IMG/VR virus record: IMGVR_UViG_3300042379_000183
Location: 1,376 to 65,375 of that record
From: a virus
Lineage: Duplodnaviria; Caudoviricetes
Length of the DNA: 64,000 nucleotides
Strand: one strand, 5' to 3'
The number at the start of each line of letters is the position of its first letter. Within the stretch, counting starts at the first letter, position 1. The notes under the pieces are model-generated. The model was not told the origin of the DNA, made no database searches, and saw only the letters and a program-made list of their open reading frames with translations. This document shows, piece after piece, positions 4,591 to 51,850 of the stretch. The position numbers and the translations under genes are program-made.

Positions 4591-5432
4591 TGTTTAAAAT
4601 TAAAGTAATCGTCTTTATCTCTTTGAAGATGTATCATTTTAGCATTGGAAAGGAGATAATCTTTCCATTCAAACTCACCATATGCTAATAGATACTGCTC
4701 TACGACTTGCTCTTGGAAATCTTTCTCAGTAGTAAATGGAGCTAGAATCTTTGCAGCTTTTACTTCACCTACACGTGGCACTCCAGGAATATTATCAGTT
4801 GGATCACCTTTCAATAACTGCTGGTAGTAATGCCGCATAGCTTCTTCTTCACTTATTTCAAGAATTTCTTTCTTATGCATTAGCCAGTGTCGTCCTGGAA
4901 TACATTTTAGATCTTTATCAATAGAACATATAATGTAATCTTCTCCAATTGCTCTTGCTTCTTCTGCCCAAATTCTCATTAGATCATCAGCTTCTCTGCC
5001 ATCAGATTCAATTGCAAAGTCTTCCATAACAGCCAATTTTCTCAGAACCGGAACAAATGCGTTCTGCTTAGTAGGATCAGCATGTCTGTTTAACTTATAC
5101 TCTGGATACATTAGATTTCTAAAGTTACCAGGGCCTTTCACGGCCATAAGATATTCAGTACAATAAACTGTATCTAAAAGGTTTTGAAGATCTCTTTTAA
5201 GATTTTCCCACGATTCTTGTAAATAGATTCTATCTTCTTCTTTTGTATATTCAAATGCAACTCTCTTACCGTCATCATCTAAACTAACAAAAGCAGTTCC
5301 TTCTTCTATTCTTGCTTTCTTTTCCCATCTAGCTTTACAGGCTTGATAGCAGAGAACATCGCCATCAATTATTGCGATCGTCATCTTTTGGAACCTCACA
5401 AATGATAAATTTGTATTTAATTTCAGCATCAA
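4563..5432 (-). CDS. 5'-3' exonuclease / flap nuclease (T7 gp6-like); likely start at MTIAIIDGD
   Basis: IDGD, NFR…YKLNR, EADD, SIDKDL, GDPTDNIPGVPRVGEVKA helix-hairpin-helix. Confidence 0.9.
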   Translation of the reverse strand: MMLKLNTNLSFVRFQKMTIAIIDGDVLCYQACKARWEKKARIEEGTAFVSLDDDGKRVAFEYTKEEDRIYLQESWENLKRDLQNLLDTVYCTEYLMAVKGPGNFRNLMYPEYKLNRHADPTKQNAFVPVLRKLAVMEDFAIESDGREADDLMRIWAEEARAIGEDYIICSIDKDLKCIPGRHWLMHKKEILEISEEEAMRHYYQQLLKGDPTDNIPGVPRVGEVKAAKILAPFTTEKDFQEQVVEQYLLAYGEFEWKDYLLSNAKMIHLQRDKDDYFNFKQWPIIQELS

Positions 5433-9054: not shown

Positions 9055-9526
9055 TTAAATACTCCTCTACTTCGACATATTCACAATTATTATATGCAAT
9101 AGTTGCATCAATAGTAGGGAAGATATCTGCAATAATACGAGGTATCAAGTATGTATTTCCACCTCCATTATTTGTACATAGTAAGACATATACGAAAGTA
9201 TTATTTTCAATGTACTCACAGATATCAAAAGCAGTAATTGCTTCTGTTATATTATAGTATCTATCTAAGGTTTCATGAAGTCGTAATGTTTCTACTTTAG
9301 TTAAATCTTCTGGTGTTTCTATTAAATAAATACCACCACCAAGATCTACTTGAAAATTTGATCCATACTCTTCATCATAATAAACTTCAAAGTCTTCATT
9401 ATGTTTTGCAAAAGATGTTTCAACAATCTTTAGAAAATCAGGTGAAGGGCATCTCTGTCTTAACTCAACAAGATTATTACCAAGATCTATCATTTTATTC
9501 CTATGAGAAACAATACTCACTATCAA
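9038..9526 (-). CDS. Hypothetical acidic protein
   Basis: 162-aa ORF directly downstream of the RNAP gene. Confidence 0.6.
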   Translation of the reverse strand: MIVSIVSHRNKMIDLGNNLVELRQRCPSPDFLKIVETSFAKHNEDFEVYYDEEYGSNFQVDLGGGIYLIETPEDLTKVETLRLHETLDRYYNITEAITAFDICEYIENNTFVYVLLCTNNGGGNTYLIPRIIADIFPTIDATIAYNNCEYVEVEEYLNVDNS

Positions 9527-11771
9527 GAATTAAGCTAAGGTCTAGTGTACCGAATTTTACTGCATCTATGTTTCCATGTATATCCTTTATAATACTCGTT
9601 AATGGGTCAGCTTCATACAATTCTACAAACGTCTTTCTAAGCTTTATAAACAACTGTGGCATATCAGCTAGAAGACAACCAAAAGAATCATGAATAGTTG
9701 TCACTGGAAAGTCTAACTGATTTACTGTTATTGCTAAATGTGCAGCGTCTAAGCTATGGATAATATTTGGACTTGCACCTTGAGACTGCTTTCCCTTAGA
9801 TGGTTTTACATCTTCAATAAAGCATATTGCAAGTTGCAATGTATTTGAATAATACCCACTACTTTTTCTTTCATCTTGAGGAGGTCCATACTGTACCCAT
9901 ATCTTCTTTACATTGCCCTCTGTATAGTTTTGAACTACAGGAAAGTTAGTAATTGGTACAGTCCAAGATAAGAAACGCTCTTCTTTCTCAGCTTTCTTTC
10001 CAGCATCTTCAAAGACTTTTAGAAGCTGCATTGGACGTTCTAATGAGACTCGACAATCATTAAATACTTCTCTACCCAAATATGCACCCCACCTGTGTTC
10101 CATATAAAGCAAGAGATCAATATTATGCTTTCTAGCATCATCGATAACTTGTTGACCTAGACCATATGCAGTACCACCATATGGAATTGTCATTGTATTT
10201 CTCTTGACAATTTTTCTTTTGTATTTAGCATCTTTGATTCGATACCAAAAGACAGGAGCTGCAATGCTTAGGAGATATTCATTATCTCTTTTGAACTCTT
10301 TTATCTGTTCAATTAGAGCCTTACGTAAATCACTTTTAGGCTCAGCTGCATTTATTTGTTTCTTAAGCTCAATTAGATTATCAATAAAGATCTCACAATC
10401 TTGTATCTCTTCATCTCGCATAAGAACTAACTCTTGCTTTAAATGCTCCCATACGTGATCTCCTACATACTTATAGAGGTCTCCAGGTAGATCTAAAGGT
10501 ACTAAGTTTACATGTGGTGCAATTACTTCATCTTTTGTTAATGCTGAAAGATGTTGACTTCCATTATTAGAACCATCAAGATAGGCTTCAAGATGTGATT
10601 CATACTCATAAGAAGTATAATCATCTACTTTCGTTTGCCAAATTCTAAGTTTCATCAACTCAAAACAAGCAGCTAAGAATTGCCAAGGACTATCAGCTTG
10701 CATCCAACCTTGATTTACCTTTGGTGACTCTGCATAAGACAATAGAATTTCTTCATTATCTATAGCCCAAAGATATCTATCTTTCAATGGAATCTTGTCA
10801 GTCTTAGCATTATCTTGTCTTCCTGCATCTCCAGCCCAAGCGGAAGCAATACTCACAAGTAGCCAAAAGAAGCCATCTTTACCGATTGACTTCTTATCAG
10901 CTCTTAGAAGTAAACCTCGAGCTAGATCGCTACCTTGTTCATGAAGATATGCGGTAGCAACATATTTTCTACCTCTGAAGTCATAGTAATAAAGGTGATA
11001 AAATATCTTATTAAGAAACCTTTTAGCAATATCACCAATTGCTTTCGCTTCTCTTAACTTTGTTGCACGTGCTTCTACATTATTTAATTCCCAAATATCT
11101 GAGAATGCTTCTGTTTTATTACGTAATGCCCAAGAATGAATATTGAAGATTTCTGTGTTTATCTTCCAACCAGTTTCTTGTGCACGATTTACACAATCAA
11201 AGATAATAGGGTGTGTACTTATGGATAAGCTATCGAGTACTTCTTTATTACCAGTCTTCACCAACCAAACACCTGTATCGTGTTTTGCTGTTACCCAAGG
11301 ACTATATGGCTTCTCTGATGGTAATTTTTCTATTTTGCTAGGATCAAGATTATTCCATAGATTACAGATACCATCATCATTTAAAACTTGAATAATATAC
11401 GTAGCATGCCCTTTTGCACCTTGACCGAGTACTACCTGAATATAACCGAGTTCTTCAAAAGTATAAAGCATAAATGCACCAGTCTTAGCTGCTAGCGCTG
11501 ACTCTCGTTTAAGCTTATACTTGCTTCTGATGTTATGCCCAATTGCAGCAATAACTTCTGTCAGATAGATCGAATTTTTATTTGGTCCTCGTTTAGGTCG
11601 AGTATACAAATAAATAATTGAGACTAAGTTTTCAAGATAGTCTTTACACTTATATTGGAATAAATATTTTAATGGATTATGAGCAGACACCTCTATCTGT
11701 AATCTAGATTGAATTGAGTCTAGGATAAGTTGAGCTTTAGAATTTGAAATAACTTTTTTCATCTCATTCAT
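9501..11771 (-). CDS. T7-like single-subunit DNA-directed RNA polymerase (stand-alone)
   Basis: YDFRGRKY, motif A LDGSNNGSQHLSAL, motif B RKIVKRNTMTIPYGG, SPNIIHSLDA, motif C TIHDSFG; AAGGAG RBS. Confidence 0.95.
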   Translation of the reverse strand: MNEMKKVISNSKAQLILDSIQSRLQIEVSAHNPLKYLFQYKCKDYLENLVSIIYLYTRPKRGPNKNSIYLTEVIAAIGHNIRSKYKLKRESALAAKTGAFMLYTFEELGYIQVVLGQGAKGHATYIIQVLNDDGICNLWNNLDPSKIEKLPSEKPYSPWVTAKHDTGVWLVKTGNKEVLDSLSISTHPIIFDCVNRAQETGWKINTEIFNIHSWALRNKTEAFSDIWELNNVEARATKLREAKAIGDIAKRFLNKIFYHLYYYDFRGRKYVATAYLHEQGSDLARGLLLRADKKSIGKDGFFWLLVSIASAWAGDAGRQDNAKTDKIPLKDRYLWAIDNEEILLSYAESPKVNQGWMQADSPWQFLAACFELMKLRIWQTKVDDYTSYEYESHLEAYLDGSNNGSQHLSALTKDEVIAPHVNLVPLDLPGDLYKYVGDHVWEHLKQELVLMRDEEIQDCEIFIDNLIELKKQINAAEPKSDLRKALIEQIKEFKRDNEYLLSIAAPVFWYRIKDAKYKRKIVKRNTMTIPYGGTAYGLGQQVIDDARKHNIDLLLYMEHRWGAYLGREVFNDCRVSLERPMQLLKVFEDAGKKAEKEERFLSWTVPITNFPVVQNYTEGNVKKIWVQYGPPQDERKSSGYYSNTLQLAICFIEDVKPSKGKQSQGASPNIIHSLDAAHLAITVNQLDFPVTTIHDSFGCLLADMPQLFIKLRKTFVELYEADPLTSIIKDIHGNIDAVKFGTLDLSLILDSEYCFS

Positions 11772-11779
11772 GGCGCTCC

Positions 11780-11905
11780 TTAAAATAAATTTTTTACTAT
11801 GTACAATAATGTTATAACAAAGAGATACAATGCAAAGACGTTAAACACAACAATTAGAAAGACCTTTAAAAGATTCAAAAGAATTTCTACTATGTTGTAT
11901 TTCAT
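11780..11905 (-). CDS. Small hydrophobic peptide, 41 aa (not in ORF track)
   Basis: MKYNIVEILLNLLKVFLIVVFNVFALYLFVITLLYIVKNLF*; AGGA RBS; stop abuts the RNAP RBS. Confidence 0.45.
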   Translation of the reverse strand: MKYNIVEILLNLLKVFLIVVFNVFALYLFVITLLYIVKNLF

Positions 11906-11972
11906 TCAATTCCTACTTATTTTGATTGATTATAATAATAATAATGTCTAAGTAGATCGAAGGTATTCTATC

Positions 11973-12030
11973 GAAAAAGAAAAAAAAAAATAAGAGAAAG
12001 AAAAGAAACTATCCCACGAATGGGATAGTT
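11973..12030 (-). terminator. Strong intrinsic terminator upstream of the RNAP gene
   Basis: Perfect 10-bp stem AACUAUCCCA-UUCG-UGGGAUAGUU followed by a ~35-nt U-rich tract. Confidence 0.85.
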
Positions 12031-12331
12031 AGGGTTGACATATATCTAAAATCTTATTGATTTTAAATAATGCCAATTGATGCTCTAGTGAGCGAGGTGA
12101 TGATGTTTCTAACACTTGTTGCAACTTCTTTATTTCAGCCCGTGTTACCTCTATCTCTTTCTGCCTACGCAACACTTCTTTTAGATGTAAGTCAACTGCT
12201 GATCTTAGACGAGCACCAGTTGAAATACACTTTATTGTGTTTGAGATTGAGGAATCCTTTACACTTCCTGCAAAGAATTCCATCAATCTAAAACCTGCTG
12301 CTTTCTTACTCGAGCCTTTAGTTGAAGACAC
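12029..12331 (-). CDS. Hypothetical early protein
   Basis: 100-aa basic ORF overlapping the upstream gene, ending at the terminator. Confidence 0.55.
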   Translation of the reverse strand: MSSTKGSSKKAAGFRLMEFFAGSVKDSSISNTIKCISTGARLRSAVDLHLKEVLRRQKEIEVTRAEIKKLQQVLETSSPRSLEHQLALFKINKILDICQP

Positions 12332-12764
12332 GATTCCAGCTCACTACTGCGATCTCCTTTGTATCCTTCCAGAGATTGGTTGTCACTGTTGCTACGGGAG
12401 CTACAATGTTTTCCTTAACAGCTGCTGTGACTGTAGCCTGAGGAATAATCGCAGCCTTCAAACTTGCGGTTGTAACTTGCAAATTTGCTTTTGTTACTGC
12501 TAATTCTACCTTGGCAGCGACTATCTCATCCCTCATTTGCGAAATTTGCTGTTCCGCAATAATAGCTTCAAGCTTCATTTTATCCATCAATTCTCTCTGA
12601 AGCGTAATCTTTTCTTCTACTTTCGTTATAGCAGCATCAATCTTTGTTTGTTCAACAACAATCTGCTCTTGTCTCATAGTACACATAACAGCTAACGCAA
12701 TTACTCCAAAAGCAAGGAAGGTACTAACCACTGCACTAAAGGTTTTAGACATTTGAAACTCCAT
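12318..12764 (-). CDS. Membrane-anchored coiled-coil protein; likely start 12752
   Basis: N-terminal TM segment then heptad-rich helix; GGAG RBS before MSKTF. Confidence 0.65.
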   Translation of the reverse strand: MEFQMSKTFSAVVSTFLAFGVIALAVMCTMRQEQIVVEQTKIDAAITKVEEKITLQRELMDKMKLEAIIAEQQISQMRDEIVAAKVELAVTKANLQVTTASLKAAIIPQATVTAAVKENIVAPVATVTTNLWKDTKEIAVVSWNRVFN

Positions 12765-12818
12765 TTGGATTAGATGAACACATTAGACAGTTTGAAAACT
12801 TATCCAGGTTTAGCTTAC

Positions 12819-13121
12819 TTACAACTTCCACACATCCGATTCAGAACAAACTGCAAAAGCCTTCTCTGCAGCTTCTTTTTTACTCTTAGCCTTACTCCCA
12901 ACTTTAATTGCTAGAATGCTGAACTTACTTTCAACCGAGCCATCATCTTGCATTATTTCAATTATCATTTCAGTTTGAAACTTCTTCGAGTCTTTTTTCT
13001 TTAACTCATAGGCAACAGTGCTAGTTGTTGCTGCATCAAGACATATATTGAATTTTGAAACTTCTGCTGTACTTGCAAAAGAAACAAAAATCAATGTAGT
13101 CGCAATAAAGATCTTTTTCAT
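12819..13121 (-). CDS. Small exported protein with signal peptide
   Basis: MKKIFIATTLIFVSFASTA signal peptide, two Cys; GGAG RBS. Confidence 0.7.
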   Translation of the reverse strand: MKKIFIATTLIFVSFASTAEVSKFNICLDAATTSTVAYELKKKDSKKFQTEMIIEIMQDDGSVESKFSILAIKVGSKAKSKKEAAEKAFAVCSESDVWKL

Positions 13122-13161
13122 TTCAATTCTCCATTTGGTTTAGGTTGACAGACTTTTTGTC

Positions 13162-13191
13162 TATCATATAAGATACTCTTTTTTCCGCGTT
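13162..13191 (-). promoter_or_regulatory. Class I repeated motif, copy 1 (putative early promoter)
   Basis: Minus strand AACGCGGAAAAAAGAGTATCTTATATGATA; 27/30 identical to 14157-14186. Confidence 0.7.
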
Positions 13192-13276
13192 ATAAATACG
13201 ATAAGCCTATTAAAAACCAAGTAACCAACATTGCTATCAATAGTAAATTGTTAAGAATAAAGTTAAGTGCCTTCAT
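13190..13276 (-). CDS. Small hydrophobic peptide, 28 aa (not in ORF track)
   Basis: MKALNFILNNLLLIAMLVTWFLIGLSYL*; AAGGAGA RBS. Confidence 0.55.
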   Translation of the reverse strand: MKALNFILNNLLLIAMLVTWFLIGLSYL

Positions 13277-13299
13277 ATCTCCTTTAAGGTTGATTTAAA

Positions 13300-13578
13300 T
13301 TAGTACTGATTATAAAATGTATACTCTGTTTCCAGAAGATACATCTTTTCGTTTGCTCTGATTGGATCAATTGTAAGTGCCTTAGCTGCACCCCATTGCT
13401 CTATCAGAAAGGCGCCTACATTGTACGTTTCATTTTCTTCCAACCACTTAAATTCTTCATTTAATGCTTCTGCCTCTTCGTGAGTTACTTTAATTATTCT
13501 CCAAACAGGTATTTTAATGCGATTTCCAAATTTATCTTGTTCATTTCTCCAAGTTCTCAAAACATATGAATAGTCCAT
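13300..13578 (-). CDS. Hypothetical early protein
   Basis: 92 aa, AAAGGA RBS, directly downstream of the hammerhead cleavage site. Confidence 0.65.
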   Translation of the reverse strand: MDYSYVLRTWRNEQDKFGNRIKIPVWRIIKVTHEEAEALNEEFKWLEENETYNVGAFLIEQWGAAKALTIDPIRANEKMYLLETEYTFYNQY

Positions 13579-13596
13579 TACAAGTCCTTTAAGTTT

Positions 13597-13648
13597 ATAC
13601 AGGACGCCCTTTCAGGCGTTTCGGCTAATAAAGCCTCATCAGCTGTAC
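13597..13648 (-). ncRNA. Type I hammerhead ribozyme
   Basis: GUACAG CUGAUGA GGCU-UUAUU-AGCC GAA ACGCCU-GAAA-GGGCGU C^ CUGUAU: full conserved core, three paired stems, GUC cleavage triplet. Confidence 0.9.
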
Positions 13649-13818
13649 TGTTTAGTTATCAAATCTGCGTAACCGACAATTTCATTTTTGTCATTACGCG
13701 AATATGTAACTCTAGTATTACCATTGTATTCAAAGTCCGCTAACTGTTCTTCAGTTATCTTCTTTTGATAGAATGGTTCCCAAGTATCTTTGTCTATCTT
13801 TCTAAACCAGCAATCCAT
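13639..13818 (-). CDS. Hypothetical 59-aa protein (not in ORF track); stop codon lies inside the ribozyme core
   Basis: MDCWFRKIDKDTWEPFYQKK…DLITKQYS*; AAGGAGA RBS. Confidence 0.65.
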   Translation of the reverse strand: MDCWFRKIDKDTWEPFYQKKITEEQLADFEYNGNTRVTYSRNDKNEIVGYADLITKQYS

Positions 13819-13829
13819 TTTAGTCTCCT

Positions 13830-13928
13830 TTAGAGTGGGATGATATTAGTGTAGACAAGTAATCCAAAGACTATTGCAAATACTATCAATGCACAATCCC
13901 AGAATTGGTTTTCTTTTTCGTTAGACAT
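13830..13928 (-). CDS. Small membrane peptide, 32 aa
   Basis: MSNEKENQFWDCALIVFAIVFGLLVYTNIIPL*; AAGGA RBS; the longer track ORF (13830..14048) overlaps the upstream gene. Confidence 0.5.
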   Translation of the reverse strand: MSNEKENQFWDCALIVFAIVFGLLVYTNIIPL

Positions 13929-14121
13929 ACGTTTCCTTTTCAAGGTAATCAGACAGACGAGAGATTCTTTCGGCATAACAATTCGACATATATCGTGCTT
14001 GTTCCTCATGTGACTTATACTGTAGATAAAGCTTCTTAGCGTCTGCAAGTTCTAGTCTTGCGTATTCAGTTGAATCGATTTGTTTAAAAAGTTTCTTTAC
14101 AATAATCAATAGATGGTTCAT
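13921..14121 (-). CDS. Hypothetical early protein
   Basis: 66 aa helical protein, first ORF after class I motif copy 2. Confidence 0.6.
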   Translation of the reverse strand: MNHLLIIVKKLFKQIDSTEYARLELADAKKLYLQYKSHEEQARYMSNCYAERISRLSDYLEKETYV

Positions 14122-14156
14122 ATTTAAATAGAGTTAAGGGCGATATGCTATTTGCT

Positions 14157-14186
14157 TATCATATAAGATACCATTATTTCCGCGTT
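14157..14186 (-). promoter_or_regulatory. Class I repeated motif, copy 2 (putative early promoter)
   Basis: Minus strand AACGCGGAAATAATGGTATCTTATATGATA, just downstream of the lysis-cassette terminator. Confidence 0.7.
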
Positions 14187-14197
14187 TTATTTTGATT

Positions 14198-14220
14198 AAA
14201 AACCCCACTCATTGGTGGGG
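14198..14220 (-). terminator. Intrinsic terminator closing the lysis cassette
   Basis: CCCCAC-CAAUGA-GUGGGG-UUUUU. Confidence 0.7.
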
Positions 14221-14234
14221 CAAATAAAAACATT

Positions 14235-14381
14235 TTAGACTTTGTTATATAGCTCGAAAAGAGTTTTTACTTTTTCTTCCATCATTTTAAGTCTTACATC
14301 CATCTTAGCAAAAAGCACAATGACCATAACAACCGCAACGCCGATAGGCCAAAGTTTGCTTACTGTATCTAATACATCCAT
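14235..14381 (-). CDS. Small TM plus coiled-coil protein, 48 aa, possibly lysis-associated (not in ORF track)
   Basis: MDVLDTVSKLWPIGVAVVMVIVLFAKMDVRLKMMEEKVKTLFELYNKV*; GGAG RBS. Confidence 0.6.
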   Translation of the reverse strand: MDVLDTVSKLWPIGVAVVMVIVLFAKMDVRLKMMEEKVKTLFELYNKV

Positions 14382-14406
14382 AGCATCTCCGACAAATCAC
14401 TAACAA

Positions 14407-14910
14407 CTATTTAGCTGAAAAACATTTACTTTCAGCTACTCTTCGTTTTGTTAGACCTTTTAGCACGATACCTCCTGCTTTATTCCAGCAAAGAAATTCA
14501 TTTGCGGCTTCACTATATTCTAATCGATTTACAAGCCTACGTAACGTACTTGCTTGTAGATTTCCAACGCCAACATTAAAAGCAAAGTCAGTTAATGCGG
14601 CTTCTTGGTTAACTGTTAATGGTGCACTGATATATTTTAGTACACCCTTATTTGCTGTTTTCAGGTCTTCCTCTAACCAGAGATCAGCAGTTTCTTGATT
14701 TATTAAAGGGAAAGTAGTTTGGAGCCATTGATCTGCTTCTAATTTACTTTTACCTTCTTCCAAATGTTTTTTTAAACTATATCTAGAAACTAATCTTCCC
14801 CATCCTTGAGTAGGTAATCCATGTGGATGAGGATCCCAATACGATTTCAGAAAACAGCGCTCAAATGGTTTTGCAAGAGATGCAGCTAATTCTGCAACAT
14901 CCTTATTCAT
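14407..14910 (-). CDS. Endolysin, GH24 phage lysozyme
   Basis: FE…Y.D…T.GWG catalytic region; NQEAALTDFAFNVGVGN; WNKAGG.VLKGLTKRRVAE. Confidence 0.9.
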   Translation of the reverse strand: MNKDVAELAASLAKPFERCFLKSYWDPHPHGLPTQGWGRLVSRYSLKKHLEEGKSKLEADQWLQTTFPLINQETADLWLEEDLKTANKGVLKYISAPLTVNQEAALTDFAFNVGVGNLQASTLRRLVNRLEYSEAANEFLCWNKAGGIVLKGLTKRRVAESKCFSAK

Positions 14911-35550: not shown

Positions 35551-38500
35551 TTAACCAACACCATACCAACTAAAATCAGTCACAAACCCTGGAGGAACCT
35601 TTTTTAAAATATCTTCCTTCTTTAAGATATCAGATTCTTTAAGAAGTTTTCCACCAACACGAGACCTACCAGGAACTGGAATAAGTCCAATATCAATAGC
35701 TTCATTTAGATATTTATCATATAATGCAGGAGGGAGTCCTCTTGCTTTCATCTCATTTAAGGTCATTAAGATAACATTGTTATTTAACATTTCAGCATAG
35801 ATTTCTCTTAGTGCTTGTCTTGCTGGTAACATGTCCGTTGCATTTGCAAAGAAAGCATCATGGATTGTAGAAGTAGGTACCTTATTCTTTTTACCCCATA
35901 AATGAAATTGTTTAACAATAACAGCATCATTAGAATGATTACCATTAACAGCAAAAGCAGTTCTTGCCTTACCTGAGTCTGCAATATCATTTATCTTACC
36001 AGACTTATTAATAACTTGTTGCCACCAAGTAGCCTCTGTCTTTTGTGGGATTTGAAGAATGTTAGTAGTCCAATTTCCATCTTTATCTCTATACGTTAAT
36101 CGCTCTTCAAATGTTTGGGTAAAATTCTGTTCAATTGTCTTTCCATCAAAATTTACCCAAGGAATATTTGTCCAGCTTTTTGGTAGTTTATTAGCATAAA
36201 AGATTTCTAATTCATTTAGATTTTTAACTTCTAATAAATCAACTTTTAAGTACTTTCCACCAGTACGTCTTGTCTCTGCTGCTTTAACTCCATATATAAT
36301 ATCACTGAGCGTTCCATTTGGTTCCCAAAAGCCAAAACGCTTTAATATCTTTTCACTAACAGCTTCATTAGCTTTTAAACCTAAAAGACGACTAACTGAA
36401 TCAGGTAAAACATAACCTTTTTTCTTTTGACCTAACAAAGAGATCTTAGCAATTGTCTTCCAATCAAAATCACTATCAGAAGGTTTTGCGTTAATGATAA
36501 AATCTTCTGCAAGCCTGCCAAAATACTTAGTGAAATCTTTCAAGATAGGAACTTGCTCACTTAAGTACTCACTCATTATCTTTGCAATATTTTTAAAGTC
36601 CTCTGGTGTAACAATTTTATCATATGACCTAGTCATCTTCTCAACTAAGTCTCTAGTTGCTGGATCTAAGAAATATAATTGTTCCATTATGTCATCACCA
36701 GGATCAAGACCCTTATTAAAAATATCTTTTACATTTTCTCTGAGAACTCTTAATTCATTTGCAGTATCCATATCAAACTTCTCAAATCGTGCTATTCTAG
36801 CAGAGATTTCGTTTAATACAATCTCTCTATCAGATGCTTTTACAACTAAGACATTTTCATCTTTACCTAAGATTTTAGAAAGCTTTCCTTCTACATTCAA
36901 TGCACCTGTTCTTTCACCGGCACCATAGAAGGTTACCATATTCTGTGCTTTAGCAGCCTTCCTTAAATCTTTTTCAGATAAGCCTAACTTTTCATTTAAC
37001 TTTCTAAATCTAATATCATTAAATGTTGAGCTAGCAATTTCGTCATATAGTCTTTTCTTTTGGGAAGTAGGGACTACATTACTTAGTTCTGCAAGTTGTT
37101 TATTCTTAGTCGTTAATGCAATAATTTGTGCACCAGAAGAAGAAGCATCTTGCTCTAACGCTAATGCGATTTCATAGTCTTTTAACTTTAACAAGTTCTT
37201 AGCAGTATAACTACCTTCTAAATAATTATCTATCTTTGCTATCTCTAAAGCAAATCGTAGAAATTTATTTAACTCTTCACCATCTACTTTAGAAAAAATC
37301 TCTGAATCTAAAATAGCACGTAAGTCTGCTGGTTTCTTACGAAGCATATTATTGCCAAGTTTAACCAGCTCTGGTCGCCATTTTACTGCAATTTTTTGTC
37401 TACCTGTAACAGTTAGTGAATTAAACTTACCTTCAAAATGATCGCTTAATCCACCTAAGAATGCACCAACTTGATCTTGTAAGTTACCGAAGTCATCAAC
37501 ACTAAACTTTTTAATTTCAGCTGTATTTAAAAATGGTCTGAATGTCTCGCCTGATTGAGGACTAATAAGACCTCTATCATAAATTCTCGCTCTATGATCG
37601 ATAAAAGGATGGTTACTAAAGGCAGTATCATCTTTACGTAACCACTCCATTGCTTTGAATCGTTCATAGGCATCACCGCGATTTGCAATATATTTTCTAT
37701 ATTCATTCAAATCATTATACTTCTTTGCTTGACCTCTATCATCTTCAAAGTACAGCAATTTTTGTGTGAAATCAAAATAGTCTTTATCTATTCGATACTT
37801 AGTTTTTGAAGCCCAATTTAATGCATCTATTAAATTCTTATCAACAAACTCTTCTGGAAAATCGCTAAAGCTAGAAGTAGAGGTAATTGGAATACGAGTA
37901 TCCTCATAACCAAAGATACCTTGATCAATAAAATATGTTTTATAACCTTCTCTAAAGACTAATTTATTTTTATCTTCTGTTACACTAACTCTTAATCCAA
38001 CTTCAACTTTACGAGTGAGTTTAGAGTATTCCTGAATTCTAGGATCGGTAACACGGATATTATAAGATAATGTATCGTAGTATGGACCAAAGTAACTATT
38101 ACTCAAACGACTCTTCATTCTTCTTTTCTGCACACCAAAAGTCTCTACTTCAAAGAACTTACTCACATTCTTTGCTTCTAATAGCTTAGAGCCTAATTCA
38201 TACCAGGTACGACGATATCCATTTACATTTGCTAAGTTATACAAGTCACGACCGAGAGCTACTGCAAATTGATCTCTATCTGGTGTATCTGCTAAACTAA
38301 GACGATGTGCAAATCTTAAATAGAACTGTTGTAAATCTCTATCTGAAATTCTACTACTTATCAGTAATGGAATTTTTCTATCAAAGACATTTCTAAGTTC
38401 TAACGCTATCTTTGGTGCAACAGTATCTTCCCATTTATTCTTAGCAAGAATATTAGGAATGAAGTTATCATGTAAGTCTTGTAACTGAGTGGGACCAAGA

Positions 38501-40179
38501 ACTGGATCTAAGTAACTATCTTGTAATAGCTTCTTTAAAAAATCAGAATTCTTTCTAATTTGTGTTTCAATTGAATCAGAAACGTTCATGATATCGAACT
38601 TGATTTGACTCTGAACAACAGCTTTAAAATTAGTCCAAATCTCTTTATTATCTCGGTATCTACCAAAAATAATTCTTAAATTATCAGCAACAACAGCTTG
38701 CTCATTAACACTCATTTTATCTGCTAACGTATTAATAACAGAGTTAATAAATGTTTTGTCATCTTCTAATAACTTATCACTAGTTTCAATAAGTCTTAAA
38801 TTATTAGTTAACACACTAGGATTAGGTTGATAAAGTCTTACATCTTCATATCTAGAAGTAATTGGATTAAACTTAAGCTGATCCTCTCTAGGTGGATTTG
38901 CTAATACTCTATTCTTTACACCTCTCTTTACATTTAGTAAGGTGCCTCTATAATTTGTTAAAGAAAGTGTACCATCTAACTCACCAGATTGCAGAAGATA
39001 ATAATCAATTAATGTTTGTTTTAATTTAGAATTAGAAATAAAATCATCAGGAGTAGATGCACCTAGTTGCATAGCATCTAACTTCTCTTTTGCTTTTGCA
39101 AATTTACGTGTATCGTTTGGTAATGTATAACTACTATCAGACAATGTACGTAATTCTTTAATACCAATTGAATTACCTTCTGGATTTGTAAATCTATCTA
39201 AAGTTAGTTGACCTGAGTTAAATAATTCAACTTTCTGATAATCACCAAGATGTCTAATTTTTACATCTTGTGGTTGTCGTAATAGCCAAGTGTTATACGA
39301 CTCTCTCATTGGCGTTAGGCCATCATAAAACTGAATTTCAGCGTCAGATAATCCTTTTAAGTTTCTACGTCTAACTTGTGATACACCTTCTAATTTACCA
39401 ATATCTTCCCATGATTTAAAAACAGGAACTGTAGTAGATCTACAATGAAAGTGTGCAGGAGGTAAATGTACTGTGTCAGTTGTTGGATAAATCGTTCCAT
39501 CTCTATGTGCGCATAAGGAAGTTGTTCTTGAATCTAGGACTGCAACATATTGCCAACCGGTTAAGGCTTTCTCATTTGCTTTATAGATTGCTTGATCTGT
39601 TTGAGCCGTTACCGATGTAATTGCAGTAATGACAAGTGCTTTAGACTGAGTTCTACTGATATTATAAATATTAGTTTTTCTTACCTCTAAAGCAATTTCA
39701 TCAACTGTCATTCCAGTAGCAATACCACGTCTGATTGTGGCATCAATACGTTTCTTTTCATTAATACTTACGCTAGCCCAACCAGCAGCTAATGTTTTGT
39801 TTTCAAATAAAGGCTGATTAAGAACTACATCTTCAGCAATACGTACTGGAGGTCTTTCTGCCTTCCAGATCTTTCCCATTGATGTTTCAATAGTTTGATA
39901 GGTAAAAGAAAGTTGATCAGAAACTAAATCTAATAAAGATCTCTTTGATGTGTTAAAGGTTTCTTTAAATGTAGCTTGTAGCTCTTGATCAACTGCTTCT
40001 CTAAGTGTCTCAAAGCCCTTTTGAGATGCCGTAGCATTTTTAATAAGTTTATCTAATCGGACTTCATGGCCATCCAATACTAACGATATCTTACTATTTA
40101 CACGACGCTCATAAAGCCGAATCATTGCGGCACGATCAAGAGTCCTATCGTAAATTTTGGTATTAGCATTGGATAGCAT
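35551..40179 (-). CDS. MuF (SPP1 gp7-like) head morphogenesis domain fused to a T7-like single-subunit RNA polymerase
   Basis: N-terminal WQYVAVLDSRTTSLC…PPAHFHCRS; C-terminal IDHRARIY, motif A EQDASSSGAQ, motif B RKAAKAQNMVTFYGAG, NHSNDA, motif C TIHDAF; start placed at ATG 40179. Confidence 0.9.
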   Translation of the reverse strand: MLSNANTKIYDRTLDRAAMIRLYERRVNSKISLVLDGHEVRLDKLIKNATASQKGFETLREAVDQELQATFKETFNTSKRSLLDLVSDQLSFTYQTIETSMGKIWKAERPPVRIAEDVVLNQPLFENKTLAAGWASVSINEKKRIDATIRRGIATGMTVDEIALEVRKTNIYNISRTQSKALVITAITSVTAQTDQAIYKANEKALTGWQYVAVLDSRTTSLCAHRDGTIYPTTDTVHLPPAHFHCRSTTVPVFKSWEDIGKLEGVSQVRRRNLKGLSDAEIQFYDGLTPMRESYNTWLLRQPQDVKIRHLGDYQKVELFNSGQLTLDRFTNPEGNSIGIKELRTLSDSSYTLPNDTRKFAKAKEKLDAMQLGASTPDDFISNSKLKQTLIDYYLLQSGELDGTLSLTNYRGTLLNVKRGVKNRVLANPPREDQLKFNPITSRYEDVRLYQPNPSVLTNNLRLIETSDKLLEDDKTFINSVINTLADKMSVNEQAVVADNLRIIFGRYRDNKEIWTNFKAVVQSQIKFDIMNVSDSIETQIRKNSDFLKKLLQDSYLDPVLGPTQLQDLHDNFIPNILAKNKWEDTVAPKIALELRNVFDRKIPLLISSRISDRDLQQFYLRFAHRLSLADTPDRDQFAVALGRDLYNLANVNGYRRTWYELGSKLLEAKNVSKFFEVETFGVQKRRMKSRLSNSYFGPYYDTLSYNIRVTDPRIQEYSKLTRKVEVGLRVSVTEDKNKLVFREGYKTYFIDQGIFGYEDTRIPITSTSSFSDFPEEFVDKNLIDALNWASKTKYRIDKDYFDFTQKLLYFEDDRGQAKKYNDLNEYRKYIANRGDAYERFKAMEWLRKDDTAFSNHPFIDHRARIYDRGLISPQSGETFRPFLNTAEIKKFSVDDFGNLQDQVGAFLGGLSDHFEGKFNSLTVTGRQKIAVKWRPELVKLGNNMLRKKPADLRAILDSEIFSKVDGEELNKFLRFALEIAKIDNYLEGSYTAKNLLKLKDYEIALALEQDASSSGAQIIALTTKNKQLAELSNVVPTSQKKRLYDEIASSTFNDIRFRKLNEKLGLSEKDLRKAAKAQNMVTFYGAGERTGALNVEGKLSKILGKDENVLVVKASDREIVLNEISARIARFEKFDMDTANELRVLRENVKDIFNKGLDPGDDIMEQLYFLDPATRDLVEKMTRSYDKIVTPEDFKNIAKIMSEYLSEQVPILKDFTKYFGRLAEDFIINAKPSDSDFDWKTIAKISLLGQKKKGYVLPDSVSRLLGLKANEAVSEKILKRFGFWEPNGTLSDIIYGVKAAETRRTGGKYLKVDLLEVKNLNELEIFYANKLPKSWTNIPWVNFDGKTIEQNFTQTFEERLTYRDKDGNWTTNILQIPQKTEATWWQQVINKSGKINDIADSGKARTAFAVNGNHSNDAVIVKQFHLWGKKNKVPTSTIHDAFFANATDMLPARQALREIYAEMLNNNVILMTLNEMKARGLPPALYDKYLNEAIDIGLIPVPGRSRVGGKLLKESDILKKEDILKKVPPGFVTDFSWYGVG

Positions 40180-40180
40180 G

Positions 40181-40330
40181 TTACGCCTTTGATTGTTTAA
40201 CTTTCTTCTTTGCTTCTTTAGCAACACTTAATGCAATAGCCACAGCTTGCTTTTGTGGTTTTCCCGATTTCATTTCTTTGCCAATATTAGAAGAAACTGT
40301 TTTTGGCGAGTATCCCTTTTTTAATGGCAT
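40181..40330 (-). CDS. Small basic protein, 49 aa (not in ORF track)
   Basis: MPLKKGYSPKTVSSNIGKEMKSGKPQKQAVAIALSVAKEAKKKVKQSKA*; AGGA RBS; resembles a common small phage head-region protein. Confidence 0.75.
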   Translation of the reverse strand: MPLKKGYSPKTVSSNIGKEMKSGKPQKQAVAIALSVAKEAKKKVKQSKA

Positions 40331-43698: not shown

Positions 43699-44571
43699 TT
43701 AAAATGTAATTGAACCTGAAGCAGTGAACTTATACGTTCTATAACCGCTAGCAGTAGTTATTGTGGGAGATCCAGTAGTAGTAGCAGGAGCGTATTTATC
43801 TATATATCTAATAATTATTACTCCTGATCCACCTGTAGTAGTTCCTGTAGGCCCACCACCTCCACCGCTACCTGTATTTATTGTACCTGCGACTGCATCA
43901 CCAGCACTTTGATAACCCCCAGCACTCTGTCCTCCGGCACCTCCTCCACCAGTTCCTCCTGCAGCACCGTATGCAAAAATAAAATCATTACTGCAACCTC
44001 CACCACCTCCGCCAGCATAATAGGTACCTGAACCAACGGGCCATTCTTTTCCTGCACCACCAGCGCCACAATAATTATACGAGTTTGCGGCAGGATTGTA
44101 ACCACGCGCAGTACCTGCCCCAACACCTCCAGCACCTCCACCTCCTCCCGTTACACTTGAGTATTGTTCTCCATTTAGTCCTCCTGCATAACCTTGGCCT
44201 GGAATTGCTGTACCTCCCCGATACCAACCACCGCCACCACTACCGCCAGAAAAAGCGTATCCATTACTACCGTTGCCTCCACCATATGCTGTTAAAGTAG
44301 AGAATACGCTATTTACACCTTGACTGCCACCAGTAGTACCGCCAGCCCCAATGGTAATAGCATAATTAGTCCCGGTAGATATTATTAAAGTTCCGTTTAA
44401 TAAACCTCCGGCACCGCCTCCGCCACCAAAACCAGAGTAACCTGCACCACCTCCTGCTATTACTAGGTATTCAACACTCATAGGTATTTGTAATAAATCA
44501 GAAATACTTACCAAACCTATTTTACTACTGGGGGCACTGCTATTTACTAATTTAGCATTAAACTTAGACAT
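43699..44571 (-). CDS. Glycine-rich domain virion protein
   Basis: VEYLVIAGGG…GGSGVIIIRY…YKFTASGSITF. Confidence 0.75.
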   Translation of the reverse strand: MSKFNAKLVNSSAPSSKIGLVSISDLLQIPMSVEYLVIAGGGAGYSGFGGGGGAGGLLNGTLIISTGTNYAITIGAGGTTGGSQGVNSVFSTLTAYGGGNGSNGYAFSGGSGGGGWYRGGTAIPGQGYAGGLNGEQYSSVTGGGGGAGGVGAGTARGYNPAANSYNYCGAGGAGKEWPVGSGTYYAGGGGGGCSNDFIFAYGAAGGTGGGGAGGQSAGGYQSAGDAVAGTINTGSGGGGGPTGTTTGGSGVIIIRYIDKYAPATTTGSPTITTASGYRTYKFTASGSITF

Positions 44572-44573
44572 GG

Positions 44574-44957
44574 TTAGCTAATCGTTTCGTAACTTGTAAT
44601 GTATTCAATAGCAGCACTAGTTCCACTAGTCACAACTAAGCTTTTATCTTCGGTAAGATATACAAAATTACCTTTATCAATTAATTGTAGTGAACTTGCA
44701 GCAGGAATAGAAATAAGATACGCTAATCTATAGGCAGTACCAGCACCTGCAGCACTGCTAGTAACTGATACGGTTACTGTTGCAGCACTTGCAGATACAT
44801 TAGTACAAGTAAGAGAGTTAATTTTAATTACTGAGGCAGATGATGCTGCATTTGATACCACTACGTTAGCAGTTGTATTTGCAGGCGCTACATATGATAG
44901 TCCTGCTGTAATATTTGTGACATTTACAATATTAGGTGCTGCCATGTTAGCCTCCAA
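44574..44957 (-). CDS. Hypothetical virion protein
   Basis: MAAPNIVNV…YETIS, beta-rich. Confidence 0.65.
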   Translation of the reverse strand: MEANMAAPNIVNVTNITAGLSYVAPANTTANVVVSNAASSASVIKINSLTCTNVSASAATVTVSVTSSAAGAGTAYRLAYLISIPAASSLQLIDKGNFVYLTEDKSLVVTSGTSAAIEYITSYETIS

Positions 44958-45219
44958 ATATCATTGCCATTGCAATGACTTTACCTGTTGAAATCCCTGG
45001 TGCAGGAGTCGCAGGAGTCGTGCTAATCCAGGTTGTACCATTGCTAGTAAGAAGATTACCAGAAGTACCGGCGGAAGTTAATCCAGTACCACCGTACAGC
45101 ACTGAAAGTGTGCTAGTGGTACTAGGTAACTTCCATGCTGTACCATTCCATGTCCAAATTTTACTGCCTAAAGTATAAGTTTGCCCAACTGTAGGGCTTG
45201 AAGGTAATGATATTGCCAT
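44947..45219 (-). CDS. Short fibre-like protein
   Basis: LPSSPTVGQTY…W.WNGTAW, GGTG, ends IAMAMIFGG. Confidence 0.65.
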   Translation of the reverse strand: MAISLPSSPTVGQTYTLGSKIWTWNGTAWKLPSTTSTLSVLYGGTGLTSAGTSGNLLTSNGTTWISTTPATPAPGISTGKVIAMAMIFGG

Positions 45220-45226
45220 ACTATCC

Positions 45227-48200
45227 TTAGAAAGTTATTGAACCTGAAGCAGTAAATTTATAAACACGATAGCCATTAACTACTGTATAAGTTGGAGAAC
45301 CTGTAGTGGCTGAAGCTGGTAGATAGGTGTCAAGGTAACGTATGATTACTACTCCTGAACCTCCAGCACCAATGCCATAGTAACCACCGCCACCACCACC
45401 ACCAGTATTAGCGGTACCTGATACTGCAGATATGTTGCTATAGTAACAACCACCTGCACCGCCACCACCGCCACCACCCGCTGCTATGCCGTATCCAGCT
45501 GTTGGTGTATGCCCACCACCACCACCACCATAGTACGTTGGTATACCACTAATACTATAAGCAGTACCAATACCACCACCACCACCAGTATACCCAGAAT
45601 GATTTGTACCTACAGCACTAGCACCTCCTCCACCCCCTGAGCCATAATAATTAGAATTATCATAACCACCAGAAGTTCCACCGGCGTTGCCTTGCCCAAT
45701 GATTCCATAGCCGCCAACTTGAGTTGACACAATACTATGACCACCGCCTCCGCCGCCGGAACCCCCAAATCTACCAGCAAATCCTTGATAATGTCCAGCC
45801 CCGCCTCCGCCAACCGAAGTCATGGTGCCAAACCTAGAGTAACTACCGTCGCCTCCACTTGAGTATGATGTAGTGCCTGCAATGCCTCCGGCACCGACTG
45901 TGATTACGTATGAAGATCCAGATGTTACAGTATATAATGGATTATGGATTAAACCGCCCGCTCCACCACCACCACCCCAACCGCCGCCGCCTGCTCCACC
46001 TGCAACTACTAATGTTTCTATTGCGAGTGGCATAGCGCTAGCTGCTACTGGAGCAACTAGCTGTGGTACAAAAGGAAGCGCTGTTACAGGAGGCGTGAAC
46101 GCCGCTGTGTATCGTGCTACACCCTTTGTAATGCGTAGGTCATCGATGTAGCCATTCCAATGGCCACCCGCTGCCACTGCACCTCCAACAGTTATAGCAG
46201 ATGTGGGACTGTTCAATGTTTGGGTAATTGATACAGTTGTTCCTAAAACGCCGTTTTTGAATGGATACAAAGTGTTACCACTTCTGCAAATAGCGTAATG
46301 AATCCATGACCCTGTTGTGATTGTCCCAAGTGTTGCAGGGCCGTATAGTGTTACCCCAGAAACCCAGTAAAAGTTCATACTTGAACCAACTGACTCCAAG
46401 ACATAGGAATTACTCGCACTACCATCGCTAGCAGGCCATTGTGCAAATACTCCGTTATACGAATTAAGTGCATTAGCGTAAACCCAGCCTTCAATCGTAA
46501 AATCTCCACTTCCAAAAGCAAGTGCAGGCGTAGCAGGTGTAGACAAATAATCACCAGTACCATCAAACTTCAAACTACCTGTACCATACTGTCTAACTGC
46601 AGTACTGATCTGAGAATCACCGACTGTTTCTAATATATTGTTACCAGTAGTATCAACAATTGCGGCATTAGCACCATTAAGTAATAAACCTGTAGGACTA
46701 GTGCCCCATTTTATTGTGCCGCTCGATGTAAAAGTGTACGTGGTATAACCACCTGAGGTCACAATTGTAGGGGATCCCGTTGTAGTAGCTATAGGGAAAA
46801 GGTCTAAATGCCTAAGAATAACAATACCTGAACCGCCATCTGGAGCATTGGGCGCAGTATTGTTCCCAGATCCGCCACCGCCGCCACCACCAGTATTTGC
46901 AACACCTACAGTAGCATTAGTAGAAGCACCGTCTCTCCCTCGCCCGCCACCACCTTTTGCACCAGTGTTAGAACCTGGAATATTAGTTGGCGTAATTGGA
47001 CCGTTTGTATAATATCCTCCGCCGCCACCACCTGCAAACCAACCAGCAGGAAATCCAGCATTGGTGAATTGCTGATAATAACGTCCAATGCCGCCATTGC
47101 TTGCTGTTGATGATCCGCCTCCAGTAGCAGTTCCACCAGCGCCACCGCCACCGGAACCCTCATGAGGAACCGCATGACTAGAATCTTCAGCTGTAGTTGG
47201 CCCTCCGGGACCTCTACTACCTCCGGGAAAGCCATATCCAGTTCCACCACCGCTATTTGTTTGAGTTGCTAAACCACCCCTAGATGCTCCAGGGTTTGCA
47301 ACTCCAAAATAGTAATCGCCAGCGCCGCCTCCACTACCACCATTCTTATATACGCTGTCAGTGTAGAATGCTTCGTTGCCTCCACCACCACCTTGCGCTA
47401 TTATATCTCCAAATACGCTATTGCCTCCTGCAAATCCGTGCGAGTTATTAGTTGTGCCATAACTTCCAGTTGTTGAAGCAGCATAATATCTCCCGCCCTG
47501 GCCACCAGCACCGATAATAATTGGTATGCCAGCACCAAAAGCAACGGTTTTATTGGGATGGTATACTAATCCGCCTGCACCACCGCCACCGCCTGCACCG
47601 TGTGATCCACCACCACCGCCACCGCCTGCTACGACTAGTGATTCTAGGCTAAAAGGTATAGCTGTAGGAGTAGGGCTAATTGAAAATTGAATAGTACCAC
47701 TAGTGTTAAATTTATAAATGCGGTATCCGTTAGAAGTAGTTACTACTGGGGATCCTGTGGTAATTGCAACCGGTTCTGTACTAAGATGACGTATGATTAC
47801 GACTCCATCCCCTCCTGTGCCTCCTGAACCGGTGCCGGCATAAACATAACAACCACCACCACCGCCACCGCCAGTATTAGCAATACCATTTGGTGCCACA
47901 GTATTAGTTACAGATTCACCACTGGCCCCACCGCCTAAACCTCCTACACCAGCTACCTGTCCGGCAATAGCCCCATACCCTGCACCACCCCCTCCGCCAG
48001 CATAATACGTGGATGTTCCAGTAATACTTGATGTTAGACCAACACCGCCAAAGCCCCCGCCTGCAGCAACACCGGGCGAACCTGCACCCCCTGCTCCACC
48101 GCCGCCGCCTGAGTTATAAGTATTGCGTCCTAGTGTAGAACCTCCTGCGTATCCCTGTCCATCTGTTCCTGCACCGCCATTATGTGTTTGTGCAACTTCT

Positions 48201-50584: not shown

Positions 50585-51419
50585 ATGAAAATATATCCAT
50601 TTTATTTACTGCAGCAGTTACAATCGGTGCGCCTGAAGAACCCCATTTAACATTAGTAAAAGTTGCTGTAGTTGGTGTACCTGTAGTAGGTTGTTTTAAG
50701 ATTAAAGTAAATGAAGCTCCGGCTGCAACTGTAGGCATAGTAAATGTACATGCAGTCGCTGTGGTAAGAGTAGCAGTTAAAACTGTACCCGCTGAAATAG
50801 CTAATGTAGCTGTAGCTCCTACTGTGCCATTGACTACTACACTTTCAATAAATCCAGAAATTACTGGTCTAGTGAGTGTAGGAGTAGTACTAAATACTAA
50901 GGAGCCGCTACCTGTTTCATCTGTCACTGCTGCAAGTAAGTTAGCACTATTGGGGGTAGCTAGGAAAGTAGATACATTAGCACCTAATCCGGTTATACTA
51001 GCAAGAGTGCCTCCTGGCCCTACCGGGCCTACAGCTCCACCACCTGCCTGAGAAGCTTCAATCCAAGCACCTGTCATCCTAACATATAAAGAGCCATCTG
51101 TAGTATCATACCAGACGGTACCATCTATAGGTAAAGAAGGTGCTGTTGCACCTGCATATGTAGCTACAATAGATGCATCATTTAAATATCCAAGTACTTC
51201 GATCTCATCATTAAGTGCAGCACCTACCACTAATGTAATCGAAGTTCCCGTAGTTGCAGTATAGTCTGTAGCATTTAAATGTACACCATTCTGGTATACT
51301 TCTACAAATGAAGGGGAATAAGTTACCGCAAAGATTGTCTGCCCTGCGGTAGCTATGTAACTTCTCTTATCTATGGCAGTTTTACCACTACCTTGTACTA
51401 ATGCACTTAACTGAGTCAT
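50529..51419 (-). CDS. Fibre-related virion protein
   Basis: ATAGQTIF…VEVYQNGVHL…DYTAT.GTSITL; C-terminal DIFSFVSDGTNWYG. Confidence 0.65.
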   Translation of the reverse strand: MTQLSALVQGSGKTAIDKRSYIATAGQTIFAVTYSPSFVEVYQNGVHLNATDYTATTGTSITLVVGAALNDEIEVLGYLNDASIVATYAGATAPSLPIDGTVWYDTTDGSLYVRMTGAWIEASQAGGGAVGPVGPGGTLASITGLGANVSTFLATPNSANLLAAVTDETGSGSLVFSTTPTLTRPVISGFIESVVVNGTVGATATLAISAGTVLTATLTTATACTFTMPTVAAGASFTLILKQPTTGTPTTATFTNVKWGSSGAPIVTAAVNKMDIFSFVSDGTNWYGSTAQGFTY

Positions 51420-51422
51420 AAG

Positions 51423-51842
51423 TTATCTTTCGTTAGGCTGAATAGGATCAGTTAGAATCTTAGCAGCACGTTCCTGGGTGAGTAAACCTTTGGTTACTAA
51501 CATCGGGAATCCTGCAACTACTCTGCTACCATCAGCCAAGTCAATTGTAGTAGCAGCATCGAATCTAGTTTTCCAGAGCTCTACTTCCGCATTAGTTTTG
51601 GCAGCATTAATGATGCCGATAAATTCCGCATCGGTCATGCGATTTAGGAGTGCTAACTTAGTAATAATACTAGGTAATACTACAGCGGGTCCATCAACGA
51701 ATACGTTGTTCTCATATTTTTTACCTAGCATGACAATGTCATATTCTGCAATTTCTATCATGTTTGGTAAATCTATAATACCGGCAGCTTGAGTTACTCC
51801 AACTACAATATTGTTATCATTTAATTGTGCATAATTTGTCAT
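51423..51842 (-). CDS. Possible fibre assembly/chaperone protein
   Basis: YAQL…GLLTQERAAKIL; downstream of fibre genes. Confidence 0.55.
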   Translation of the reverse strand: MTNYAQLNDNNIVVGVTQAAGIIDLPNMIEIAEYDIVMLGKKYENNVFVDGPAVVLPSIITKLALLNRMTDAEFIGIINAAKTNAEVELWKTRFDAATTIDLADGSRVVAGFPMLVTKGLLTQERAAKILTDPIQPNER

Positions 51843-51850
51843 ATTATTCC

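Follow-up and report, generated by a model that had tools for sequence, protein, structure and literature searches.

What is the 52-nucleotide (nt) element that lies between two small genes of an uncultured lake-water phage, and does it matter that the stop codon of the upstream gene falls into its core? The element is found at 13648..13597 on the minus strand of the 64-kb stretch of DNA analysed here (the window; positions 1,376 to 65,375 of IMG/VR virus record IMGVR_UViG_3300042379_000183), which makes up most of a 65,375-bp record estimated to be 94% complete and carries its genes all on the minus strand. A first-pass annotation had taken the element for a type I hammerhead ribozyme that processes a polycistronic message, with ribosomes terminating on the core as a possible gate of folding and cleavage. 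Our analysis suggests that the element is likely to be a functional, self-cleaving type I hammerhead that is transcribed together with a cluster of small open reading frames (ORFs). Processing of the message by the ribozyme is likewise probable, and such a role has already been suggested in the literature, but the special part ascribed to the stop codon and to gating finds no support.

Read on the minus strand, the element runs GUACAG-CUGAUGA-GGCU-UUAUU-AGCC-GAA-ACGCCU-GAAA-GGGCGU-C-CUGUAU and represents a full type I hammerhead of 52 nt (Table 1). The invariant hammerhead positions are all present (C3-A9, G12-A14, A15.1-U16.1, C17 and G10.1-C11.1) and the helices are fully paired. Stem I is open and comprises 6 bp, one terminal G-U pair counted in, stem II opens with G10.1-C11.1 and stem III opens with A15.1-U16.1. 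The latter pair (A 13619 - U 13604) is followed by C17 at position H17, as at hammerhead cleavage sites, and the element order I-core-II-GAA-III-H17-I, with stem I open and stems II and III closed by loops, is that of type I. Reading of the minus strand thus showed the coordinates and pairings of the first-pass annotation to be right throughout, and the predicted cut at 13603/13602 agrees with the consensus position. The minimum-energy structure of the isolated 52-nt RNA is the hammerhead fold (-17.0 kcal/mol).

Table 1. Coordinates of the hammerhead, its parts and its surroundings in the window (letters are those of the minus strand; R2, covariance model described in the text)
Feature	Position	Strand	Remarks
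Complete type I hammerhead ribozyme	13597..13648	-	stems I/II/III = 6/4/6 bp; descriptor, minimum-energy fold, R2 70.1 bits, E 6.3e-14 (R2 partly independent)
Class-conserved A directly 5' of 6-bp stem I	13649..13649	-	A in 164/181 class members with 6-bp stem I
Stem I 5' strand GUACAG	13648-13643	-	letters read
Catalytic core C3-A9, CUGAUGA	13642-13636	-	U4G5A6 = stop of upstream ORF
Stem II GGCU / loop UUAUU / AGCC	13635-13623	-	4 bp
Loop II UUAUU, class pattern U-N-A-N-U	13627..13631	-	in 5-nt loops: U1 115/116, A3 107/116, U5 115/116
GAA (G12-A13-A14)	13622-13620	-	letters read
Stem III ACGCCU / loop GAAA / GGGCGU	13619-13604	-	6 bp
C17, cleavage-site nucleotide	13603	-	letters read
Predicted scissile bond, C17 (13603) / C1.1 (13602)	13602..13603	-	hammerhead consensus
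Stem I 3' strand CUGUAU	13602-13597	-	letters read
Class-conserved AA directly 3' of stem I	13595..13596	-	A in 164/181 and 137/181 class members with 6-bp stem I
Upstream ORF, 59 aa, no known family	13639..13818	-	AAAGGAG 7 nt before its ATG
Shine-Dalgarno-like AAAGGA of 92-aa ORF	13586..13591	-	11 nt after cut
Downstream ORF, 92 aa, no known family	13300..13578	-	start 24 nt after cut
Promoter-like motif GCGGAAA-N6-GTATCTTATATGATA	14157..14183	-	~510 nt upstream of hammerhead; 2 copies in window, 0 in 100 shuffles
Terminator-like hairpin + T run after lysis genes	14202..14221	-	parts late unit from small-ORF unit with hammerhead

How readily could such a site arise by chance? A structural descriptor made up of the core, GAA, A15.1-U16.1, H17 and the three helices matches exactly one site in the window, both strands considered. 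When the descriptor was applied to 300 random sequences of 64 kb each (first-order Markov), none contained a site as good as 13648..13597 (6/4/6 bp with A15.1-U16.1), and looser matches with stems of at least 4/3/3 bp were found in seven of them. A linear pattern that disregards pairing was not significant in the window, as its 12 nested matches came from two places and 13 of 100 shuffles equalled it. By a rough hand estimate, ~4e-6 equally good matches are expected per 64-kb window, which corresponds to ~1 over ~250,000 windows. Rarity per window would consequently leave chance possible over a quarter of a million windows, and therefore comparative evidence was sought.

This evidence comes from IMG/VR, in which at least 120 stretches match a pattern defined by sequence only, namely the core, a 4-bp R/Y stem II, CGAAAC and GUC. 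Counted without any fitting to a structure model, stem I reaches at least 4 bp in 122 of the 137 unique matches listed and measures exactly 6 bp in 100; when the 5' strand was shifted by 20 nt as a control, just 6 of 137 had 4 bp or more. A survey with the descriptor, including 31 loci obtained through a variant pattern with one extra N between loop II and the stem II 3' strand, yielded at least 216 unique type I hammerheads in 131 viral loci. The members of this class are often grouped, with 2 to 7 copies per contig and a median spacing of 538 nt. In an alignment of 150 members, which was fitted to a structure model that favours pairing, 99.2% of the cells are paired as compared to 65.5% after column shuffling and 26-35% upon sliding of the partners; 767 cells are changed on both sides, versus 197 in the shuffles, and 16 of 18 pairs covary.

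The class also shares features that were imposed by no search. Stem I comprises exactly 6 bp in 181 of the 216 members; in these, it is mostly preceded by A and followed by AA, and 5-nt loops II almost always read U-N-A-N-U (Table 1). The window element carries all of them, that is, an A before GUACAG, AA after CUGUAU and the loop UUAUU. The distance from the cut to the next start codon peaks at 20-29 nt (81 of 216 members) and is 24 nt in the window. Finally, R2, a covariance model derived from 130 members of other viral contigs with the window and its closest relative, contig G001, left out, scores the site with 70.1 bits (E 6.3e-14; the best of four matches in 248 kb), although its independence is partial, given that its training set was gathered with model R1, itself built from the window and G001. 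Judged by its letters, the class is delimited by the 6-bp stem I, the A/AA flanks and the U-N-A-N-U loop II, and the window site belongs to it. Natural hammerheads generally need a contact between stem I and loop II at cellular Mg2+ concentrations, as stated in the available text of PMC3088659, and the flanks of stem I together with loop II are candidate partners in a tertiary contact of this kind.

Closer to home, 23 related viral contigs were gathered through their RNA polymerase (RNAP). By this protein, the nearest cultured relative is roseophage DSS3_VP1 (34% identity), and DNA nearly identical to the window is present in several lake-water metagenome runs. According to the descriptor and both covariance models, hammerheads occur in only one of the 23 contigs, which is G001, the closest by RNAP (78% identity). 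It carries three tandem copies on the gene strand (locus L030: 1501-1578, 2062-2136 and 2416-2490) in the same small-ORF cluster downstream of the lysis genes. In these copies N7 is A, stem I is GUGAAA/UUUCAC, stem II is GACC/GGUC or GGCU/AGCC, and stem III is longer and interrupted. Since the stem sequences of the copies differ, the helices have been kept through different sequences in G001 and the window. The next start codon is located 26 nt past the cut in two of the three copies. The tandem hammerheads of G001 would release fragments of ~560 and ~350 nt. A second hammerhead was found in the window by neither R1 nor R2; among the other related records, R1 returned just ~16-bit matches that are no hammerheads, in three of 22 records, and R2 detected no hammerhead in 16 related loci besides that of G001.

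Besides the partial independence of R2, several observations weigh against a functional ribozyme. In longer RNA contexts (131-331 nt), stem I has an equilibrium probability of ~0.01 and the fold with the hammerhead enforced lies 1.6-3.0 kcal/mol above the minimum, as calculated with folding models that leave out tertiary contacts, co-transcriptional folding and ribosomes. Furthermore, the site stays below the gathering score of every hammerhead family in Rfam 15. Finally, just two of the six records, the window counted, that cover the early region from the promoter-like motif (Table 1) to the RNAP gene contain hammerheads, and none was found in L003, L004, L005 and L007, in which this region is covered. 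The hammerhead is thus an optional, dispensable accessory of this phage lineage.

The first-pass annotation had proposed an Infernal search with the Rfam hammerhead models as a check. At gathering scores, this search returned no match at all in the window. With permissive settings, the site was picked up by Hammerhead_HH9 (RF02275, clan CL00010) with 18.6 bits as compared to a gathering score of 52, and by RAGATH-1-hammerhead (RF03152) with 21 bits (E 0.44) as compared to 56.3; Hammerhead_1, which we take to be RF00163, is in no search output, and a Clostridiales-1 match in the permissive search was discarded as a chance match. Hammerhead_HH9 likewise is of type I with an open stem I, and its alignment spans stem I, the core, stem II, GAAAC and GUC, but the phage class differs by its short 6-bp stem I, the A/AA flanks and the U-N-A-N-U loop II. 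RAGATH-1 also has the type I element order and aligns over its full length (model positions 1-77), a weak upstream hairpin included. In this model, however, stem II is a single pair, whereas the window has a regular 4-bp helix, and the upstream 'hairpin' of the window consists of four weak pairs within coding sequence; for these reasons membership in RAGATH-1 was rejected. When 12 other loci (L030, L049, L062, L075, L081, L085, L116, L125, L144, L155, L166 and L174) were scanned with Rfam 15, none of the 42 hammerheads found therein by R1 reached a gathering score. Because class members do not reach these scores either, the silence of Rfam weighs little against the ribozyme; it is a gap in the reach of the library for a short phage class that is effectively uncatalogued. 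Pipeline annotations will miss this class, with its at least 216 unique copies, because it stays below the curated thresholds of Rfam 15, and its simple defining features could seed a model.

Phage hammerheads as such have been known since 2011, and the window element is one more, well-supported example. Perreault et al. (2011) described bacterial and phage hammerheads of all three types, which often form rows and flank single genes of varying identity or short gene blocks; three arrangements were shown to cleave in vitro and one in E. coli (PMC3088659). A 2026 paper, in its accessible part, names type I as the usual type in the DNA genomes of bacteria and bacteriophages (PMC13725137). Like the prophage hammerheads of the former study, the window element has the consensus core and is placed in gene orientation amid small genes whose identity varies, and the tandem triple of G001 recalls their rows; it differs in that the window has one copy and belongs to an uncultured lake phage rather than to a prophage (PMC3088659, available text). 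Another parallel is HHphage of the haloviruses HF1 and HF2, which is positioned close upstream of an early-gene start (13 nt there versus 24 nt here) and for which the same text reports a mapped transcript 5' end within 3 nt of the cleavage site (PMC3088659). Unlike the window copy with its standard core, HHphage carries atypical insertions in the core and is adapted to high salt. Cutting of long phage transcripts to gene-length mRNAs has been put forward as a role (PMC3088659), and so has processing of polycistronic phage messages (PMC6765202); in the accessible portions of both papers these roles are proposed but unproven.

From the motif, class membership, covariation and gene context observed here, we infer that the message is cut and its expression affected in the following manner. 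In the nascent RNA, which probably begins at 14183-14157, three helices would fold around the CUGAUGA/GAA core, upon which the 2'-OH of C17 would attack its own 3' phosphate and cut the message between 13603 and 13602. Besides the 59-aa ORF, which would keep its stop codon, the upstream piece would comprise the 66-aa ORF (14121..13921) and, overlapping the latter, the 32-aa ORF (ATG 13928 to 13830); its 3' end would be formed by the hairpins of stems II and III and carry a 2',3'-cyclic phosphate. A 5'-OH would mark the beginning of the downstream piece, 11 nt before the ribosome-binding site (RBS) and 24 nt before the start of the 92-aa ORF. Inspection of the letters confirms that the next start codon, at 13578, is 24 nt past the predicted cut, as annotated at the outset, and that AAAGGA (13591-13586) lies in between. 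That is, one polycistronic message might be converted into two separately stable, translatable units without a host RNase, and the differing end chemistry and structure of the two pieces may result in differing stability and translation. Release of a sequestered RBS by cleavage was considered and rejected. Base pairing between AGGAC of the RBS and GUCCU, which spans the cut, would be conceivable, but a switch is not supported by the folding predictions, in which the RBS has a mean unpaired probability of 0.35-0.36 before cleavage versus 0.45 in the 3' product.

Does the stop codon in the core have a function of its own? The 59-aa ORF (13818..13639) ends ...CAG UAC AGC UGA, and both the letters and the ORF translation confirm that its in-frame stop is U4-G5-A6 of the core (13641-13639); U7-G8-A9 provides a second in-frame UGA. 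To place this arrangement, the longest same-strand ORF (at least 40 aa) ending near the ribozyme was determined for all 216 class members (loci L030-L178). The upstream stop codon is situated before stem I with a gap in 42 cases, abuts stem I in 29, overlaps the flank or the stem I 5' strand in 49 and coincides with U4G5A6 in 34; it lies deeper inside the ribozyme in 37, in 28 of them at +11 from C3, i.e. at U-R-A of loop II, and beyond the cleavage site in three, while 22 members have no qualifying upstream ORF. When the nearest stop is taken instead, the core stop is the commonest single offset (38 of 216). As U-N-A-N-U of loop II reads UAA or UGA when N is a purine, the conserved letters of the ribozyme close at least two reading frames, which are about equally used (34 versus 28). 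In G001, a TAA directly precedes stem I in all three copies, 9 nt before C3 and thus outside the core.

The stop codon in the core, which had been regarded as a special feature, is therefore shared by 34 to 38 of the 216 class members, with 28 more using the loop II stop, and it is absent from the core in the nearest relative. The spread of stops is what would be expected for random frames that meet built-in stops, with ORFs running to the first in-frame stop. One firm rule is seen, that is, the ORF ends before the cut, and the upstream fragment therefore keeps its stop codon. Overlap with the upstream ORF is harmless because the type I order puts the cut at the 3' end of the element. The stop inside the core is thus most readily explained as a consequence of the dense packing of genes; the survey fits such packing together with retention of the stop on the upstream fragment, not a special device that has the stop in the core.

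The same data bear on the possibility that translation gates the ribozyme. A ribosome terminating on U4G5A6 would cover stem I and the core, so that the cut would be made only when the upstream ORF is untranslated, coupling processing or decay of the message to translation. The stop inside the core fits this proposal, and in 154 of the 216 members (42 + 29 + 49 + 34) the end of the longest upstream ORF falls within the stretch from 30 nt before C3 to the core. Given the size of its footprint, a ribosome that terminates there would often extend into the 5' half of the ribozyme. In addition, the strands that compete with stem I reside in the upstream coding sequence. Yet the position of the stop is not conserved, neither in G001 nor across the class, where the stops scatter as expected of random frames. 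Moreover, no paper on stop-codon overlap in phage hammerheads was found in a literature search that had subscription journals and supplements outside its coverage, and the main text of PMC3088659 does not contain the term 'stop codon'. We therefore consider gating by translation unlikely. Should it be put to the test, the exchange G5A turns UGA into UAA and would provide a catalysis-dead mutant that keeps a stop available.

A bolder version extends this idea to the whole class. In this case, the built-in stops (U4G5A6 of the core and, in many members, U-R-A of loop II) would be used as such, with terminating ribosomes holding the ribozyme unfolded and thereby creating a translation-timed switch of mRNA processing, to which a structurally undescribed tertiary contact between the flank of the 6-bp stem I and loop II would be added. 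If true, each message would be cut only once translation of the upstream gene stops. This proposal, too, is unlikely in our estimation.

Apart from the question of the stop codon, the patchy distribution of the hammerhead raises the possibility that it is a selfish or modular accessory that moves with shuffling cassettes of small ORFs and may serve RNA ligation or circularisation rather than operon expression. The sporadic spread over the related records with a covered early region is in line with this idea, and so is the lack of relationship between the ribozyme-adjacent ORFs of the window and of G001. In G001, two of the hammerheads each follow one of two paralogous ORFs of 90/91 aa (67% identity) that end ...MAKHW-TAA; since both paralogues carry a hammerhead after them, ORF and ribozyme have been duplicated together as a module. 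Among strains, contigs from two lake-water runs match the window from 14157 upward and have 255 unlike letters below this position, that is, directly downstream of the promoter-like motif, where strains seem to swap the small-ORF cassette. However, the window genome has a single copy and therefore offers no unit to excise or circularise, and according to Perreault et al. neither spliced nor circular products were detected (PMC3088659). Processing of mRNA as the selected function is also compatible with a modular way of life. We consider a selfish or modular accessory of this kind very unlikely as an explanation of the element. The element at 13597-13648 is invariant in contigs of three lake-water runs, with variants at 13579, 13581, 13699-13701 and 13711; this invariance is no proof of constraint because the contigs carry just 1-6 differences each.

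Last, it is highly improbable that the element is a chance look-alike or an inactive relic that no longer cuts: the missing Rfam match, the low probability of stem I in long contexts and the hand estimate for a quarter of a million windows could be cited in favour, but no random sequence matched equally well, the flanks and loop II fit the class although they were never imposed, the site shares the strand of the genes and has its cut at the modal distance from the following start codon, the nearest relative carries covarying copies, and the core is intact at every invariant position.

Returning to the functional hammerhead as the preferred reading, its genomic surroundings can be described as follows. 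In the direction of transcription, structural genes (portal, major head protein and a 2346-aa tape-measure-like protein) and an endolysin gene (14910..14407) are followed by the terminator-like hairpin (14221-14202) and a run of small unknown ORFs (14121..11780). Behind these come the gene of a T7/N4-type RNAP (11771..9501) and genes for DNA polymerase, primase-helicase and ribonucleotide reductase. The hammerhead is thus located on the gene strand within the small-ORF run between the lysis genes and the RNAP gene, and the two small ORFs that flank it have good ribosome-binding sites. A reading of stem III as a terminator was discarded, given that it is not followed by a U run and that the scan for terminators has no entry at this place. 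Inspection of the other gaps in the small-ORF cluster for structured elements revealed only similar RBS contexts. The region is poor in known relatives: the GenBank phage collection contains no blastn match to 13000-14400, homologue searches with both flanking ORFs (59 and 92 aa) found no relatives and PHROGs contained no family for either, and the sole other match of the 59-aa protein, in a set of 5.8 billion proteins, is a 98% identical 59-aa twin.

The promoter-like motif upstream of the hammerhead (14157-14183) is likely to be the start of the transcript that carries it. Its second copy in the window, at 13188-13162 on the minus strand, belongs to the same small-ORF cluster. Its 15-nt core recurs letter for letter in five related contigs (L002-L005 and L007), in each case ahead of the RNAP gene, with sites at L002:3314-3328, L003:278-292, L004:172-186 and 1106-1120, L005:3758-3772 and 4592-4606, and L007:4109-4123 and 4980-4994; a further site is at L030:1147-1161. 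The motif includes CTTAT/ATAAG, an inverted repeat of 5 bp that encloses a 3-nt loop, and presumably resembles the hairpin promoters of the virion RNAP of phage N4. A 1558-aa protein encoded at 35551-40227 on the minus strand combines a head-morphogenesis/minor head domain (phrog_241, residues 13-365) with an RNAP domain (phrog_414, residues 846-1109). It is a candidate for a virion-packaged RNAP, which would be a second RNAP besides that encoded at 9501-11771, and might read the hairpin-like promoter motifs.

Elsewhere in the window, the G+C content is 0.42-0.47 in 44001-56000 as compared to 0.33-0.39 in the remainder. This segment spans the gene of a 1785-aa tail or virion protein together with neighbouring tail genes, and may represent a recently exchanged host-recognition module.

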